Assembly: GCA_963801675.1 (NCBI GenBank)
Contig: CAWDFN010000001.1
Location: forward strand, 4,311,069-4,375,068
DNA from: an uncultured Planctomycetia bacterium
GTDB lineage: Bacteria > Planctomycetota > Planctomycetia > Pirellulales > PALSA-1355
Direction of reading: 5' to 3'
Length of the DNA: 64,000 nucleotides
Shown here: positions 4,345 through 50,683 of the stretch, piece after piece
Layout: each line of letters starts with the position of its first letter
How positions within the stretch are numbered: the stretch's first letter is position 1
Position numbers and translations under genes: made by a program
The notes under the pieces: model-generated
Databases searched by the model: none
The model's input: the letters and a program-made list of their open reading frames with translations, nothing else
Told to the model about the DNA's origin: nothing

Positions 4345-4630
4345 CTAGCGAAGCGACTTTACGACGAGATACGCCGCGACCAGACCTTCGGCGGGCCGCG
4401 GAATGACGTGGCTGGCGACCAGTTCGCCGACTCTGGGTGGCGGCCGCGGCGCCGGCTTCGACGGCGGCCCGCACGCTGCCGACGTCGCCGCGGACGACGG
4501 TGGTCACGTAGGCGCCGCCGATGGAGATGCGCTTGACGATCTCGACGTTGGCCGCCTTGGCCATGGCGTCGGTGGCTTCGACCAGCGCGATCAAGCCCTT
4601 GGTTTCAATCAGTCCGATTGCCGTATTCAT
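4345..4630 (-). CDS. BMC-H hexameric shell protein (PduA/EutM-type BMC domain); 1 frameshift as sequenced
   Basis: [66 protein letters not shown], then after a one-base repair near 4432 [28 protein letters not shown]. The stop is at 4345-4347. Confidence 0.85.
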
Positions 4631-4977
4631 GCGAGTTGTCCTTGTTGACGTGTTGTGTTGACGGTGTTTGGAGTGTGAGTGACGTTGACTTTTTGCGCGG
4701 ACTCGGGCAGGACGATGCCCAGGTCGTCGTGCGGACGCGGAATGACTTGCACGCTGACGACTTCGCCGATGCGGCCGGCCGCGGCGGCGCCGGCATCGGT
4801 GGCGGCTTTCACCGCGGCCACGTCGCCGGTGACGAACGCGGTCACCAGACCGCTGCCGACTTTGTCCCAGCCGAGGAACTGCACGTTGGCCGCTTTCATC
4901 ATCGCGTCGCTGGCTTCGACCAGGGCGACGAAGCCCTTGGTCTCGATCATGCCGAGCGCTTCCACTGTCTTTGCCAT
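4627..4977 (-). CDS. BMC-H hexameric shell protein with a C-terminal tail; intact
   Basis: [86 protein letters not shown]... (tail of ORF 4627..5316). Its stop overlaps the start of the next BMC-H gene. Confidence 0.9.
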
Positions 4978-7256: not shown

Positions 7257-7324
7257 GCGCCACACAGCGATCGTCCCAGTCCGTCACAACATTATTCTAG
7301 TGCAAACGACAAGCGGCTAGGACT

Positions 7325-7449
7325 GGGTGGCCCAGACAACTTGTTGTCTGGGTCCCGAAGGGACAAGAGGATCTCGAGAGGTGTGCGCCCCCCCCTCAAA
7401 CACTTCTTATTGCTTCGCAACACCGACAACAAGTTGTCGGTGCCACCCC
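7325..7449 (+). repeat. Copy A of a ~125-nt nested-palindrome intergenic element
   Basis: GGGTGGC-CCAGACAACTTGTTGTCTGG-GTC-CCGAAGGGACAAGAGG-(35-nt core containing a C8 run)-CTTATTGCTTCG-CAACA-CCGACAACAAGTTGTCGG-T-GCCACCCC. It lies between the convergent GNAT and purN genes. Confidence 0.9.
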
Positions 7450-24356: not shown

Positions 24357-27345
24357 TCAATCGACAAACACGAATTCGTTGCTGTTGAAGATCATGCGGC
24401 AGGCGTTGGCCAGGCCGAACTTGCCGGCATACTCGGCCAGCGCCGCGCGCTTCACGCTCGCTCGGCTCGCGGCCGAAGGCCAGCCGGTAGGCCGCCTCGA
24501 TCTGGCCTGGCAGGTCGCCGCGCATGTTTTTCAGCCGCTCGGCGAAATGCTCGGCCTGCCGCGTGGCCAGCGGGTTGTTCAACAGCGCCAGCGCCTGGAT
24601 CGAGGTCAACGTCGTATTGCGCTTGGGCGTCATGATCGACGGGTCGGCACAGTCGAGGCATTCCATGAACGGATCGGGCACGCTGCGAACCAAAAAGCGG
24701 TACACGCTCCGGCGGAAGCTGCGGGCGTCGTCGACGTCGAACCGCGTGTAGTCGTAAATCGGCGAATGATCGTCTTTGAAGAAGAACTGCTGCACCGATG
24801 GGCCGCCCATCGTCAGGTCGAGTTTGCCGGAGACCGCCAGCATCGCGTCGCGAATGCACTCGGCGTCGAGCCGCTGGCGGTTCATCCGCCACAGGTAGCG
24901 GTTGCCGGCGTCGAGCCGGGCGTGGTCGGCGTTGGCCTCCGACGATTGCCGATAGACGGCGCTGGTCACCAGCAGGCGGTGCAGCTTCTTGAGCGAGTGG
25001 CCGTTGTCGATCAGCCAGCCGGCCAGCCATTCGAGCAATTCTGGATGCGTCGGCAGCGAGCCCATGCGGCCGAAATCATTGGGCGTGTCGACGATTCCCT
25101 GGCCGAAATGATATTGCCAGACCCGATTGACGATCGAGCGCCGCACCAGGGCGTTGCGCGAATCGGCCAGCCAGCGGGCGAGCGCCGCGCGGCGCTGTGC
25201 CTCGTCGGCGGGATCGGCCAGCGCAAATGCCGCTTGCGGTCCGCGCACGCACGGCACGCCGCCTGGCGCGATCTGCTGCTGCGGGCTGCGGACGTCGCCG
25301 CGGGCCAGCAAGTGAATCGGCCGCGGAGCGCGCGGCTCGGCAAACGCGGCCGCGGCATAGACCATGGGCGGCTTGGGCAGCGCCGCGATTCGTGCGTCGA
25401 CGTCCTTCGAGCCGGCCTCGAGCAGGGCCAGCTCTTTGCGAGTGGCTTCGTCTGTGCGATCGTCGACGAGCTTTAGCCGCGCTTTGTTGCCCGCGTCGAG
25501 TTCCTGTTCGAGCGCGAGCCGGCGCGACGGTTGCGCTGAATCGCCGGAGTTGATCCGGGCAAGACTGCTGAATCCGTCGACGAGATTCTTCATCGCCCAA
25601 CTGGGCGGAGCCTCGATCGAATCGAGCGACGTGACGCTTTTGTCGGCCGCCAGGTTCTGCGAACCAGAAATCACCATAAGCTCCGACAGGGCGAAGATCC
25701 AATCGTTCGTACGTTTCCAAAGCTTCGTGGCGGTGACGCGGACGTAGCGGCCGGCGGCGCCGGACGTGGCAATGCGATAGGGTTTGTCGCCGGGATGCGG
25801 GAAATCGGCGGTCGTGTGGTCGACGAACGTGCGGGCTTCCGCAAAATCGGACGCGTCGGATACCTCGACCTTGAACCGCGTCGGAAATCCGAAACCCGGA
25901 CCGGGGTGGCCGCCATAGACGACGTGTGCCGGCACCAGCACGATCTGGTCGATCGTCGCGCGTGCACCCAAGTCGACCTGCACCCATTTTGTTTCGTTCT
26001 GAGCGGGCATGATCTGGCTGTGATAGCCGAGCGTCTTGCTGGGCATGTCGGCGGGCAGGGCGGCCAGTTCGGCCTTCCACGCGGCAAGCCGCTGGTCGAT
26101 CGCGGCGATTTCGGGACTCGTGATTTGCGCGAGCCGCTCGCGGATTGCCGATCGCTGTTTTTCCAATCGCGACTTTTCAACGGCCAGCTCGGCGCGCAGT
26201 TTGGCGATGCGCCGGTCGGCGTCGTACGGGCGGTCGGCCCGATCGACGCCGGCGAACACGGCTTGCAGGGCGTAGTAATCTTCCTGGCGGATCGGGTCGA
26301 ACTTGTGATTGTGGCAGCGAGCGCAGTGGACCGTCAGGCTGGCGAAGGTGGACATGGTGTTGGCCACCATGTCGTCGCGATCGTTCGAGCGGGCGATGTC
26401 CTTGTCGACCGTCCCCTCGCGCAGTTCGACGTGTCCGACGAAGTCCCACGGCCCGGCGGCGATGAAGCCGGTGGCCACGGTGGCCTGCGGGTCGTCGGGA
26501 GACAACACGTCGCCGGCGATTTGCTCGGCGACGAAGCGGTCGTACGGCTTGTCTTGGTTGAGGCTGTCGATCACGTAATCGCGATAGGGCCAGGCGTTGG
26601 GGCGCGGCTTGTCCTTGTCGTAGCCGTGCGACTCGCCGAAATGGACGACGTCGAGCCAGTAGCGGCCCCAACGCTCGCCGTAGCGCGGCGAAGCGAGCAA
26701 CCGATCGACCAAGATTCCGTAGGCGTCGTCGCGGTTGTCGTGCAAAAACGCATCGATCTCCTCGGGCGTCGGCGGCAGGCCGTGTAGGTCGTAAGTCAAG
26801 CGGCGGATCAGCGTGCGGCGGTCGGCCTCGGGCGATGGGGCGAGATGCTGTTCGCGCAATTTGGCGAGAATGAACGTGTCGACCGGCGTGCGAATCCAGG
26901 GGTCGTCTTGCGGCGGAACGCTCACTTTGGCCAGCGGCACCAGCGACCACCAATTTGTGTCGATCGGCTTCTTGTCGGTCAGCACGAGTCCCTCGGGCCA
27001 CTTCGCGCCGGCGGCGATCCAACCGCGGACGGCGGCCACTTGCTCGGGTGAAAGGGGCGGCGCGTCCTTGGGCATTTCGGGCTTGTCGCCCGAGATGTAT
27101 TCGACGAGCAGGCTTTCGTCGGGTTTGCCGGGCGTGATTGCCGGCCCGCTTTCGCCGCCGGCGGAAAACGCCTTGCCATCGGTCAGGGCCAGTCCGCCCT
27201 TGGGCTTGGCACCCTGGTGGCAGGCCACGCAATGCCGCTCGAAAATCGGCGCGACCTGCTGCCGAAAAATCGTCCCGTCGTCGGCGCGTAGCGGCGTGAC
27301 GGTGAAAATCGAGACGGCAAGAAAAAGGGACACGGTGCGCGGCAT
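24357..27345 (-). CDS. PSCyt1-DUF1549-(F5/8 type C-like)-DUF1553 protein; 1 frameshift near the 3' end
   Basis: MPRTVSLFLAVSIFTVTPLRADDG; FERHCVACHQGAKPKGGLALT (CxxCH); WWSLVPL...DTFILAKLREQHLAPSPEADRRTLIRRLTYDLHGLPPTPEEIDAF; HCARCHNHKFDPIRQEDYYALQAVFAG; discoidin-like KWVQVDLGARATIDQIVL. The C-terminus reads ALAEYAGKFGLANACRMIFNSNEFVFVD after a one-base repair near 24441-24445. Confidence 0.85.
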
Positions 27346-37628: not shown

Positions 37629-37703
37629 GAGTGAGTTCGGCAATAACTACTGCACTCTCGCTGGCCAACATTATTCGCATGCTTGCGACGAGGGGCTAGA
37701 ATT

Positions 37704-37827
37704 GGGTGGCCCAGACAACCTGCCGTCTGGGTCCCGAAGGGACAAGAGGGTTTGGCGAGGTGCGCGGCCGCCCTCGATTGCCTCTTATTGCTTCGCAACA
37801 CCGACAACAAGTTGTCGGTGCCACCCC
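37704..37827 (+). repeat. Copy B of the ~125-nt nested-palindrome element
   Basis: GGGTGGC-CCAGACAACCTGCCGTCTGG-GTC-CCGAAGGGACAAGAGG-gtttggCGAGGtgcgcggccgcCCTCGattg-CCTCTTATTGCTTCG-CAACA-CCGACAACAAGTTGTCGG-T-GCCACCCC. It lies between the dehydratase-like gene and the PQQ-like gene. Confidence 0.9.
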
Positions 37828-37944
37828 AGAACGCGACTGCAAGCATTCGGATAATGTTGTTGTGCGCTGGGTTAGTTTGAGGATACTCCGCCAAGTACAA
37901 TAGCATCGCCTGGACGAAATACGAGCTGGATGAGGGAAAGTCCG

Positions 37945-39226: not shown

Positions 39227-40357
39227 CTACTTGTGCACCCAGCGTACTCGGTGATTGTTTGTGTCGCCGATAATCACTCCGCCGTCCGGCGCGATGCAAA
39301 TGCCGTGGGGGCGGTCGACCTTCGCTTCGAGCGCCGCAGTTTTCTCGCCCGCATAGCCGCGCGCCGCGGGTCCGCCGCCGGCGATCGTATCCACGCGATT
39401 GGCGCGGGTGTCGATGCGGCGAATCGCCTGGTTTTCGGAATCGACGACGTACACCAGGCCCTCGAGCGTCGCGGCGATGCCCTTGGGTCCGTTGAAAGTC
39501 GCGTCGGCGGGCGGTCCGCCGTCGCCGGAGAAGCCCGACTTGCCGGTGCCGGCCACGTGATGGATGACGCCGGAGTCGAGATCGAGCCGCCAAACGCTGT
39601 TACCCTCGCGCAGCGCGATCCACAAGTTTCGGCCCGTGATGGCCAGCGCCCGAGGGCCGAGGATGGGCTGGCCTTGCGATTGTGTGCCGTCGCGCGGCAG
39701 CGTTCGCTCGCCGTTGCCGGCGATCGAGGTAATCGTGCCGTTTTTGACGTCGATGCGGCGAACACGATGGTTGCCGATGTCGGCGACGTAAAGAAAGCCG
39801 CGGTCGTCGAGCGCAATGCTGTGCGGCTGGCGGAACTGTGCGGCTCTCGCAGGTCCATCGTCGCCATCGTATCCCGCCTGGGGCGTGCCGGCCACCGTCG
39901 AGATCGTGCCGTCGCGGGCGTCGACCCGGCGGACGAGATGGTTCTGCATCTCGACGAAATACATGTTCCGTTGAGCGTCGAAGCGGACTTCGTAGGGCTC
40001 GTTGAGCTGGGCTTTGTCGGCCGGTCCGCCGTCGCCCGAGTAACCCTTGGTTCCGTTGCCGGCGACGCTGGTGAGTTGTCCGCTCGAGCGGTCGAGTCGC
40101 AACACGCGGTGCTGACCGATGTTGGTGATGTAGAGAGCGCCGCTAGGGCCCAGCTCGACGCCAAACGGCTGGTCGACGGGGGCTTGCACGGCCGCCGCGC
40201 CGCCGTCGGGAAAGTCGCCGCCGCGCCCGTTGCCGGCGACGGTTTCGATAATCAGTCCGTCGGCGCCTGCTCGGGCCGCGATTGGAAAAATGCACGCGAC
40301 ACCAGTCAGAAGTCTCAGCAGGCAACTCGATGTTCGCGGCAAAGTCATGGCTTCCAC
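39227..40357 (-). CDS. Secreted NHL-repeat beta-propeller protein
   Basis: Intact ORF. Repeats include GYSGDGGPADKAQLNEPYEVRFD, GYDGDDGPARAAQFRQPHSIALD, FSGDGGPPADATFNGPKGIA and NHRVRRID. The start may be the internal ATG at 40348. Confidence 0.8.
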   Translation of the reverse strand: MEAMTLPRTSSCLLRLLTGVACIFPIAARAGADGLIIETVAGNGRGGDFPDGGAAAVQAPVDQPFGVELGPSGALYITNIGQHRVLRLDRSSGQLTSVAGNGTKGYSGDGGPADKAQLNEPYEVRFDAQRNMYFVEMQNHLVRRVDARDGTISTVAGTPQAGYDGDDGPARAAQFRQPHSIALDDRGFLYVADIGNHRVRRIDVKNGTITSIAGNGERTLPRDGTQSQGQPILGPRALAITGRNLWIALREGNSVWRLDLDSGVIHHVAGTGKSGFSGDGGPPADATFNGPKGIAATLEGLVYVVDSENQAIRRIDTRANRVDTIAGGGPAARGYAGEKTAALEAKVDRPHGICIAPDGGVIIGDTNNHRVRWVHK

Positions 40358-43984: not shown

Positions 43985-44109
43985 GGGTTGGCACCGACAA
44001 CTCGTCGTCGTTCTTGCCAAGCAACAAGAGGAGTTTCAGCGAGGCTCTCGCAGCTCATCCAAGCCTCTTGTCCCTTCGGGACCCAGACAACAAGTTGTCT
44101 GGGCCACCC
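43985..44109 (-). repeat. Copy C of the ~125-nt nested-palindrome element (reverse orientation)
   Basis: The reverse complement reads GGGTGGC-CCAGACAACTTGTTGTCTGG-GTC-CCGAAGGGACAAGAGG-cttggatgagctGCGAGagcCTCGCtgaaact-CCTCTTGTTGCTTGG-CAAGAACGACGACGAGTTGTCGG-T-GCCAACC. It sits in the divergent region between the dehydrogenase and the membrane-protein gene. Confidence 0.9.
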
Positions 44110-50389: not shown

Positions 50390-50514
50390 GGGGTAGCACC
50401 GACAACTGGTTGTCGGTGTTGCAACGCAACAAGAGGCGCTTTCGAGTGGCGATTGACACCGACCGATTCCTCTTGTCCCTTTGTGACCGATACAACGAGT
50501 TGTTTGGGCCACCC
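50390..50514 (-). repeat. Copy D of the ~125-nt nested-palindrome element (reverse orientation, most diverged)
   Basis: The reverse complement reads GGGTGGC-CCAAACAACTCGTTGTATCGG-TCA-CAAAGGGACAAGAGG-aatcggtcggtgtcaatcgccactcgaaagcg-CCTCTTGTTGCGTTG-CAACA-CCGACAACCAGTTGTCGG-T-GCTACCCC. It lies between the redoxin gene and the tetR promoter. Confidence 0.85.
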
Positions 50515-50594
50515 GACCCCAGGCCATTGCCAGCACCCAAGGCCGGAAGACCCCCGGTCCGGCCGCCCGACCCCGCGAAATACCGCAATATACC

Positions 50595-50623
50595 TTGACA
50601 GGGGGTGTCGTCATGAGTATAAA
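50595..50623 (+). promoter_or_regulatory. Near-consensus sigma-70 promoter of the TetR gene (TTGACA-17 nt-TATAAA)
   Basis: TTGACA at 50595-50600, a 17-nt spacer, then TATAAA at 50618-50623. GGAGGG lies 7 nt before the GTG start at 50684. Confidence 0.45.
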
Positions 50624-50683
50624 CAGAATGAGAATTCTAGTTCGATTCACACGCGTTTGACTCAATTCGGGCGGAGGGTTGGC

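Follow-up and report, generated by a model that had tools for sequence, protein, structure and literature searches.

The window analysed here is a stretch of 64,000 nucleotides (64 kb) from an uncultured Planctomycetia bacterium of the order Pirellulales (PALSA-1355; assembly GCA_963801675.1, contig CAWDFN010000001.1, positions 4,311,069 to 4,375,068). The spacer between a peroxiredoxin-family gene and a TetR-family gene in this window contains a repeat of ~125 nt, named copy D, which begins 14 nt past the stop codon of the peroxiredoxin-family gene. Repeat finding, motif searches, and a covariance model all place exactly four copies (A to D) in the window, with model scores of 99-116 bits (Table 1). 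The repeat is real and far above chance. The sequence GGGACAAGAGG occurs four times exactly, with two one-mismatch sites elsewhere in the window, against 0.79 expected, and the end motif GTTGTCGGTGCCACCC has nine matches at up to three mismatches against 1.03 expected, eight of which are the eight ends of the four copies. Comparison with related copies shows that base pairing is under selection in two local hairpins of the repeat and not in a long central stem. We believe that the repeat probably belongs to a dispersed Pirellulales (Planctomycetota) family of composite extragenic palindromes, of the kind known as repetitive extragenic palindromic (REP) doublets, REPINs, or BIMEs.

Related copies were collected by pattern searches. 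A scan of a genome collection with a two-anchor 26-base pattern returned four copies in two Pirellulales metagenome-assembled genomes (MAGs; loci L001-L003), and a looser pattern added ~30 copies in metagenome contigs, mostly from one sample, Ga0163150. The covariance model was built from 32 full copies and recovered ~45 real copies in the window and the collected loci, a dozen of which match neither search pattern. We note that the search pattern has AGGGAC and RTTGC fixed, so that double changes in the two mini-hairpins described below (H2 and H3) are excluded by construction.

In consensus, the element contains two inverted modules of ~48 nt around a fast-evolving spacer of 32-60 nt. From the outside inwards, each module consists of a GGGTGG tag, a large hairpin of 10-14 bp (H1 in the left module and H4 in the right), a mini-hairpin with a 4-bp stem and a GNA triloop (H2 and H3; the triloop reads TNC on the other strand), and the heptamer CAAGAGG. 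The large hairpin has the core CCAGAC...GTCTGG and a variable distal part. When reverse-complemented, the right half is approximately the left half consensus, and the element is therefore two inverted copies of one module. The main differences between these two are in the mini-hairpin stem (TCCC/GGGA versus TTGC/GCAA) and in the large hairpin's distal part. Pairing is possible between the two tags (P1) and between CAAGAGG and CCTCTTG (P4), giving a compact multi-hairpin fold that is nearly identical on either strand. The central spacers are alignable across copies yet diverge quickly. The H4 variant is lineage-specific: CACCGACAAC is found in all four window copies and in locus L021, CCCAGACACCgtgccGGTGTCTGGG in the MAG copies, and CCAGACG(A/C)C types in the Ga0163150 copies. 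In several copies, H1 is lengthened through a palindromic insertion (CAAC-TCGC...GCGA-GTTG). Among the window copies, D is the most decayed, with the lowest model score and with H1 and H2 both broken, and H1 of copy B contains two A·C cells (left-arm AAC versus right-arm GCC).

Two explicit pairing models were compared by counting pairs on 32 and on 39 sequences, with 500 shuffles and slid controls as reference. The first model contains the four local hairpins together with P1 and P4. On 32 sequences, 97.8% of the cells are paired (92.7% in shuffles), 55 cells carry double changes (12.9 in shuffles), and the covariation score is 0.136 versus 0.046, a value reached in 0 of 500 shuffles. On 39 sequences, 97.1% of the cells are paired, compared with 39-45% in the slid controls, and double changes are found at 11 pairs and in 69 cells, compared with 6.9 and 15.3 in shuffles (again 0 of 500). 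Judged by their pair types, these 11 pairs record at least 14 independent double changes. Nearly all covariation lies within H1 and H4, which contain four and five double-change pairs, respectively, in the 39 copies. One H4 pair, for example, is C-G in 28 copies, A-U in 7, and U-A in 3, and another is A-U in 26 copies and C-G in 12. The two hairpins covary internally and vary independently of each other. P1 is nearly invariant and has zero double changes in the 39 copies, which indicates that the tag is conserved as a sequence, and P4 is essentially invariant and shows no covariation. These results support selection on base pairing in H1 and H4.

The second model is one long imperfect hairpin, in which H1 pairs with H4 and H2 with H3. 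It corresponds to the preliminary description of the four window copies, which had proposed a central stem CCGAAGGGACAAGAGG / CCTCTTRTTGCTTCG and outer-arm pairing kept by compensatory and wobble-type changes. The long hairpin is the minimum-energy single-sequence fold of copies A and D on either strand, RNAalifold keeps six central-stem pairs beyond P4, and copy D does contain one G-C to A-T double change. However, pairing and covariation under this model are no better than in shuffles on the 32 copies (83.9% versus 83.8% of cells paired; covariation 0.038 versus 0.037), and the central stem alone is 78.1% paired in the 39 copies versus 77.4% in shuffles. Three central-stem positions never or almost never pair, and a variable N·N position next to the double change is unpaired in 21 of 39 copies. 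Complementarity between the left and right halves is restricted to GGGTGG/CCACCC and CAAGAGG/CCTCTTG, and the remainder is indistinguishable from shuffles. In the pattern-independent copy at L020:8398, both arms of H3 are changed from TTGC/GCAA to TGGC/GCCA, a change that preserves local pairing in H3 and disrupts the central stem. Pairing between H1 and H4, which vary independently of each other, is rejected, and pairing of H2 with H3 is unsupported in copies for which the search pattern fixed AGGGAC and RTTGC. We consider the long hairpin very improbable.

The substitutions on which the preliminary description relied are all present in the sequence. These include the central-stem arms CACAAAGGGACAAGAGG / CCTCTTGTTGCGTTG in copy D and CCGAAGGGACAAGAGG / C(C/T)TCTTATTGCTTCG in A and B, the G·T in the closing stem of D (GGGTGGC / GCTACCC), the G·T caused by CTTCTT in A, the altered interior of hairpin 1 in B (CCCAGAC-aacctgcc-GTCTGGG), the two mismatches in hairpin 1 of D, and the G·A in the closing stem of C. 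In the larger alignment of 39 copies, the G-C to A-T change, offered as compensatory, makes D the sole A-U cell at a position that is G-C in 36 copies and unpaired in two, and the same arms of D also create an A·G clash that had gone unmentioned. The C opposite A in copies A and B is a private mismatch of these two, at a position that is C-G in 35 of 39 copies. Selection on base pairing, as originally suggested, is supported for the local hairpins H1 and H4, and is not supported for the central stem, which pairs as in shuffles.

Table 1 Coordinates and sequences of the repeat copies, their parts, the family consensus, and related loci. Positions without a locus number are those of the window; consensus sequences are given in the orientation of copy A.
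Feature	Location	Strand or orientation	Basis or remark
Copy A	7325-7448	+	cmsearch 116 bits; between convergent genes
Copy A, P1	7325-7330 / 7443-7448	+	sequence
Copy A, H1	7331-7352	+	sequence
Copy A, H2	7353-7363	+	sequence
Copy A, P4	7364-7370 / 7403-7409	+	sequence
Copy A, H3	7410-7420	+	sequence
Copy A, H4	7421-7442	+	sequence
Copy B	37704-37826	+	cmsearch 109 bits; between two same-strand genes
Copy C	43986-44109	-	cmsearch 104 bits; G·A in P1, H4 degraded
Copy D (repeat under study)	50391-50514	-	cmsearch 99 bits; full but decayed
Copy D, left tag / P1 arm GGGTGG	50509..50514	-	sequence
Copy D, H1 CCCAAACAAC-tc-GTTGTATCGG, 2 mismatches	50487..50508	-	sequence
Copy D, H2 TCAC-aaa-GGGA (family consensus TCCC-GNA-GGGA)	50476..50486	-	stem broken
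Copy D, inner clamp arm CAAGAGG (P4 5' arm)	50469..50475	-	sequence
Copy D, central spacer, 32 nt, weakly conserved	50437..50468	-	alignment between copies
Copy D, inner clamp arm CCTCTTG (P4 3' arm)	50430..50436	-	sequence
Copy D, H3 TTGC-gtt-GCAA (family consensus TTGC-TNC-GCAA)	50419..50429	-	sequence
Copy D, H4 CACCGACAAC-ca-GTTGTCGGTG, genome-specific variant	50397..50418	-	sequence
Copy D, right tag / P1 arm CTACCC (consensus CCACCC; one G·T)	50391..50396	-	sequence
P1 5' arm GGGTGG		copy A	consensus
H1 CCCAGACAAC-tt-GTTGTCTGGG		copy A	consensus
H2 TCCC-GNA-GGGA		copy A	consensus
P4 5' arm CAAGAGG		copy A	consensus
Spacer, 32-60 nt		copy A	consensus
P4 3' arm CCTCTTG		copy A	consensus
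H3 TTGC-TNC-GCAA		copy A	consensus
H4 CCCAGACGAC-nn-GTCGTCTGGG		copy A	consensus
P1 3' arm CCACCC		copy A	consensus
Tandem array	L006 4998-5472		
Tandem array	L010 2519-3045		
Tandem array	L005 8425-8819		
Tandem array	L008 6947-7335		
Tandem array	L014 13892-14245		
Peroxiredoxin-TetR spacer	window		full element (copy D)
Peroxiredoxin-TetR spacer	L013	same as window	full element, own lineage's H4 type; flanking protein 75% identity
Peroxiredoxin-TetR spacer	L025		one module only; flanking protein 84%
Peroxiredoxin-TetR spacer	L029		different palindrome pair, same GGGTGGC tag; flanking protein 76%
Peroxiredoxin-TetR spacer	L026, L027, L028		nothing; flanking protein 76-77%

Covariation could also arise from selection on an RNA fold. 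In that case, the element would be a structured RNA, as the product of a multi-copy small RNA gene or as a cis-acting part of mRNAs, and would fold into a six-helix junction (P1/H1/H2/P4/H3/H4). Two helices covary strongly with 97% of the cells paired, distinct MAGs and metagenomes share highly conserved junction sequences, the same intergenic site is occupied in three organisms, and the frequent start 4-70 nt past a stop codon means that many copies are probably transcribed. However, a transcribed and selected RNA tolerates G·U on its own strand far better than A·C, and the 1772 pair cells of 45 copies contain 13 G·T, 20 A·C, and 30 other mismatches. The wobble-type argument of the preliminary description fails because G·T is not commoner than A·C; there is no strand asymmetry, and the G·T cells it had flagged are ordinary transition damage. 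It was right, however, to caution against inferring the functional strand. All ~45 copies are intergenic and are found in both orientations, with ~8 in the same direction as the upstream gene and 6 in the opposite direction. Neither promoter-like nor terminator-like sites were found beside copies A and D, and Rfam 15 gives 0 matches in the window at the gathering threshold; permissive thresholds return only miRNA-precursor hairpins that score far below it. P1 and P4 do not covary, tandem units are only 20-30 nt apart, and the large-hairpin variants are genome-specific. Of the alternatives, the structured RNA is the one we take most seriously, but it seems unlikely. Nothing here shows a functional RNA, and covariation among paralogous repeat copies is not evidence of one. 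The covariation is best explained by a propagating selfish or domesticated palindromic DNA element. Hairpins that are transcribed at gene 3' ends may have secondary effects on the mRNA, which nothing here requires.

Orthologous sites show how the element changes between genomes. The peroxiredoxin-TetR spacers of related organisms contain the full element, a singlet remnant, another palindrome pair with the same tag, or nothing. This variation is turnover at the DNA level, by gain, loss, or replacement, and not conservation of one RNA gene. The palindrome pair of L029 (10665-10745) reads GGGTGGC-ACTGGCAtctTGCCAGT-GC ... GCACTTGGCAAGATGCCAGT-GCCAC, which suggests that Pirellulales have a broader class of palindromes tagged with GGGTGGC. 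Upstream of the TetR-family gene, a region is near-identical between the window (50575-50680) and L025 (960-1060), and the remaining spacer has diverged. This region contains TTGACA...TATAAA and the palindromic AGAATGAGAATTCTAGTTCGATTCACACG, and is probably the TetR promoter and operator. A short-read Logan contig (ERR12037362) with an identical peroxiredoxin gene ends 15 nt past the stop codon, where copy D begins; the repeat probably caused this break in the assembly.

In Ga0163150, two or three units are commonly arranged in tandem, with linkers of 20-30 nt. At L014:13892-14084, a truncated right module is followed by a second complete one, in a nested partial duplication. Several metagenome contigs terminate within tandem arrays. 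At the boundaries of the element, no fixed-length target-site duplication is found; of 59 boundary pairs, 58 have an overlap of 0-1 nt. Pyrimidines predominate at the two bases just outside each GGGTGG tag (T 30, C 20, G 6, and A 3 at -2; T 25 and C 22 at -1) in a tally over ~45 copies from the window and L001-L024, with both strands mixed and some right ends badly delimited. This could be a cleavage-site or target-site preference.

These features resemble those of known REP systems. In both modules, a 10-bp stem immediately follows the GGGTGG tag, and the element occurs as inverted doublets, as a singlet (L025), and in clusters of 2-3 units without target-site duplication. In Escherichia coli, REP/BIME sequences are tagged palindromes that occur in alternating orientation and in clusters, and related species carry species-specific variants at equivalent intergenic sites. 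Recognition of the tag and hairpin on single-stranded DNA is the mechanism proposed for TnpA-REP, the REP-associated tyrosine transposase (RAYT). Our element differs from the E. coli sequences in its phylum, its sequence, its longer two-hairpin module, and an enzyme that is only putative. Similar length, imperfect palindromes, and intergenic location are also found in ERIC/IRU, the ~127-bp imperfect palindromes of enterobacteria, and in the Correia/NEMIS elements of Neisseria, both of which are often co-transcribed with their neighbours; neither is related to the element in sequence.

In Pseudomonas fluorescens and other bacteria with a RAYT, REPINs carry compensatory changes and form tandem clusters of near-identical units, and singlets are their decayed remnants (Bertels & Rainey 2011, PMC3116915). 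Like our element, they consist of two inverted short palindromes around a less conserved spacer, are extragenic, and lack target-site duplications (PMC3116915). In contrast to REPINs, the halves of our element do not stay mutually complementary, and the whole doublet does not keep the ability to form the long hairpin of a strict REPIN (83.9% versus 83.8% shuffled, as above); only the hairpin within each half covaries. Each half also has an extra conserved GNA mini-hairpin and a 7-nt clamp, and a flanked RAYT gene was not found in the window or the element-bearing loci.

The layout also resembles that of GTAG-tagged REPs. According to Di Nocera et al. 2013 (PMC3733652), these have a 4-nt GT(A/G)G tag directly 5' of a 6-13 bp stem, with a GTGG variant in Opitutus terrae GTAG-20, form sub-families by complementary stem changes, and prefer sites downstream of open reading frames (ORFs). 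The same survey describes head-to-head dimers with the tags outside and spacers of 20-100 bp, in which complementary ends or small terminal stem-loops are possible, and reports GTAG-20/21 families and many tyrosine (Y1) transposases in Rhodopirellula baltica. The tag and stem layout, the stem sub-families, the outward-tag dimers, the ORF-downstream sites, and the Pirellulales host are all shared with our element. The stem CCAGAC...GTCTGG is apparently unlike the R. baltica families, as judged from their published descriptions. GTAG-21 of R. baltica is of the GTAGCTGGATTCGCAAGAATTC type seen around the RAYT genes of L030 and L032, and our element does not match the peptides for which intragenic GTAG-20 copies of R. 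baltica code. The survey also covers the terminal inverted repeats associated with TIRYT transposases, including "double palindromic" ones, which are longer inverted-repeat modules with self-complementary tracts that occur as dimers or clusters (Di Nocera et al. 2013). Their module layout is like that of our element, yet the sampled Pirellulales relatives of the TIRYT protein rba2408 have no copy of it beside the gene.

We therefore propose, by analogy with these systems, how such a family could spread. Copies would be made and renewed at the DNA level, and a putative RAYT-type HUH/Y1 tyrosine transposase would recognise the tag and the hairpin on a folded single strand. If only copies with an intact hairpin propagated, the compensatory pattern would follow, and copies that ceased to propagate would decay, as copy D may have done. 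We note that the mechanism of mobilisation is only inferred, because the expected Y1 (RAYT-type) transposase was not found. In the collected DNA, tblastn gave no match to the E. coli protein YafM, to the R. baltica proteins rba11751 and rba2408, or to O. terrae 2468, and a scan of this DNA for HUH...Y motifs gave nothing credible. Proteins related to rba11751, a RAYT of R. baltica, were found by protein search in REPtrons of L030 and L032, where their Y1 genes lie just downstream of trpA or sucD. These genes are flanked by a different palindrome, GTAG-CTGGATTCGCAAGAATTCAGAC, in long tagged copies (GTAGCTGGATTCGCAAGAATTCAGAC...; L030:3911-3977 and 4587-4653, L032:4567-4643) that are of the GTAG-21 type, and this palindrome family is absent from the window. 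The relatives of rba2408 found by protein search are Y1 genes without an adjoining copy of the element. Among the best 120 matches to each of rba11751 and rba2408, none comes from the contig whose peroxiredoxin-family protein is 100% identical to that beside copy D. A scan of viral contigs for the left module gave no match.

Several of these results weigh against a REP-doublet family. No linked transposase was found in the 64 kb of the window or in the ~190 kb of loci that carry the element, and the two sampled Pirellulales Y1 families are flanked by another palindrome or by none and are not the partner. The two REP halves do not keep mutual complementarity, unlike those of classical REPINs, and the six central-stem pairs beyond P4 are retained by RNAalifold on thermodynamic grounds. 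Recognition of a tag plus hairpin does not account for the conservation of the mini-hairpins and CAAGAGG, which is partly imposed by the search patterns. The copy count of the source genome, four, covers the 64-kb window only. The presence of the element at the same site in organisms whose flanking proteins are 75-84% identical would also fit a host function.

These points bear on another possibility, that the element is not a passive REP, and either serves the host as a conserved six-helix nucleic-acid device or is spread by a non-RAYT mechanism. Its invariant core of GGGTGG, GNA mini-hairpins, and CAAGAGG is kept across Pirellulales lineages and at orthologous sites, and could be an RNA or single-stranded DNA platform for a dedicated protein. 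This possibility draws on the lack of a linked transposase in the loci examined and on the conservation of the inner core; we rank it after the structured RNA and likewise regard it as unlikely. We continue to favour the REP-doublet family.

It is quite improbable that the element evolved in place behind genes as a bidirectional transcription terminator or as a hairpin that protects mRNA 3' ends. Many copies lie just past stop codons, including between convergent genes, and DNA folding gives the stems z-scores of -3 to -6, which marks them as stable. However, no T-run follows the stems, the terminator scan is blank at A and D, and some copies are located between divergent genes or upstream of a gene. 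Recurrence of the same 125-nt sequence in tandem arrays and at unrelated loci requires copying and not independent origin.

A conventional miniature inverted-repeat transposable element (MITE), that is, a deleted derivative of an insertion sequence (IS) with a DDE transposase that is mobilised via terminal inverted repeats, has hardly any probability in our view: the size of ~125-160 nt, the terminal inverted repeats, and the dispersed intergenic copies agree with it, but the boundaries lack a target-site duplication, the ends are palindromic hairpins with covarying stems and not plain inverted repeats, no related IS or transposase gene was found in any examined locus, and tandem head-to-tail clusters with short linkers are common. 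Correia elements, for comparison, have TA target duplications and plain terminal repeats, in contrast to the unduplicated, hairpin-ended element described here. A CRISPR-like array was rejected, as the spacers of different copies are alignable and the array linkers have been duplicated along with the units, and so was an integron attC site, as GTTGTCT misfits the GTTRRRY core and no cassette ORFs were seen between units on inspection.

Other repeats were noted in the window. Copy B is nested in an outer inverted repeat formed by CAACATTATTCGCATGCTTGC (37666-37686) and the complement CAACATTATCCGAATGCTTGC (37839-37859). Copy A has ~35 nt of the left flank of copy B in common (7287-7321) and lacks the right arm; 7287-7394 and 37666-37773 are 81% identical, and the window contains no further copies of the outer repeat. 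The outer repeat and the element could form a longer composite unit of ~200 nt, or the element could have been inserted into another palindrome. The region 39410-40241 contains internal direct repeats of 43-73 nt with 70-77% identity, spaced ~339 and 510 nt apart (families D4, D9, and D10); it is apparently coding and may encode a protein with repeated domains. At 26347-26373, GGTGG is followed by a perfect 8-bp hairpin (ACATGGTG-ttggc-CACCATGT), which occurs once and is possibly due to chance.

In the best reading, the element is a new family of the REP-doublet (REPIN/BIME-like) type, set apart from the listed families as far as their published descriptions go. It explains the recurrent intergenic blocks of 125-160 nt and the assembly breaks in Pirellulales genomes and MAGs, and its covariance model and anatomy are ready for masking or counting copies. 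The family provides a clean example outside the Proteobacteria of compensatory evolution at the level of the hairpin, combined with an invariant tag and a conserved GNA mini-hairpin in each module. Should the cognate Y1 transposase be found, the known range of REP-RAYT co-evolution would grow by another lineage of Planctomycetota.

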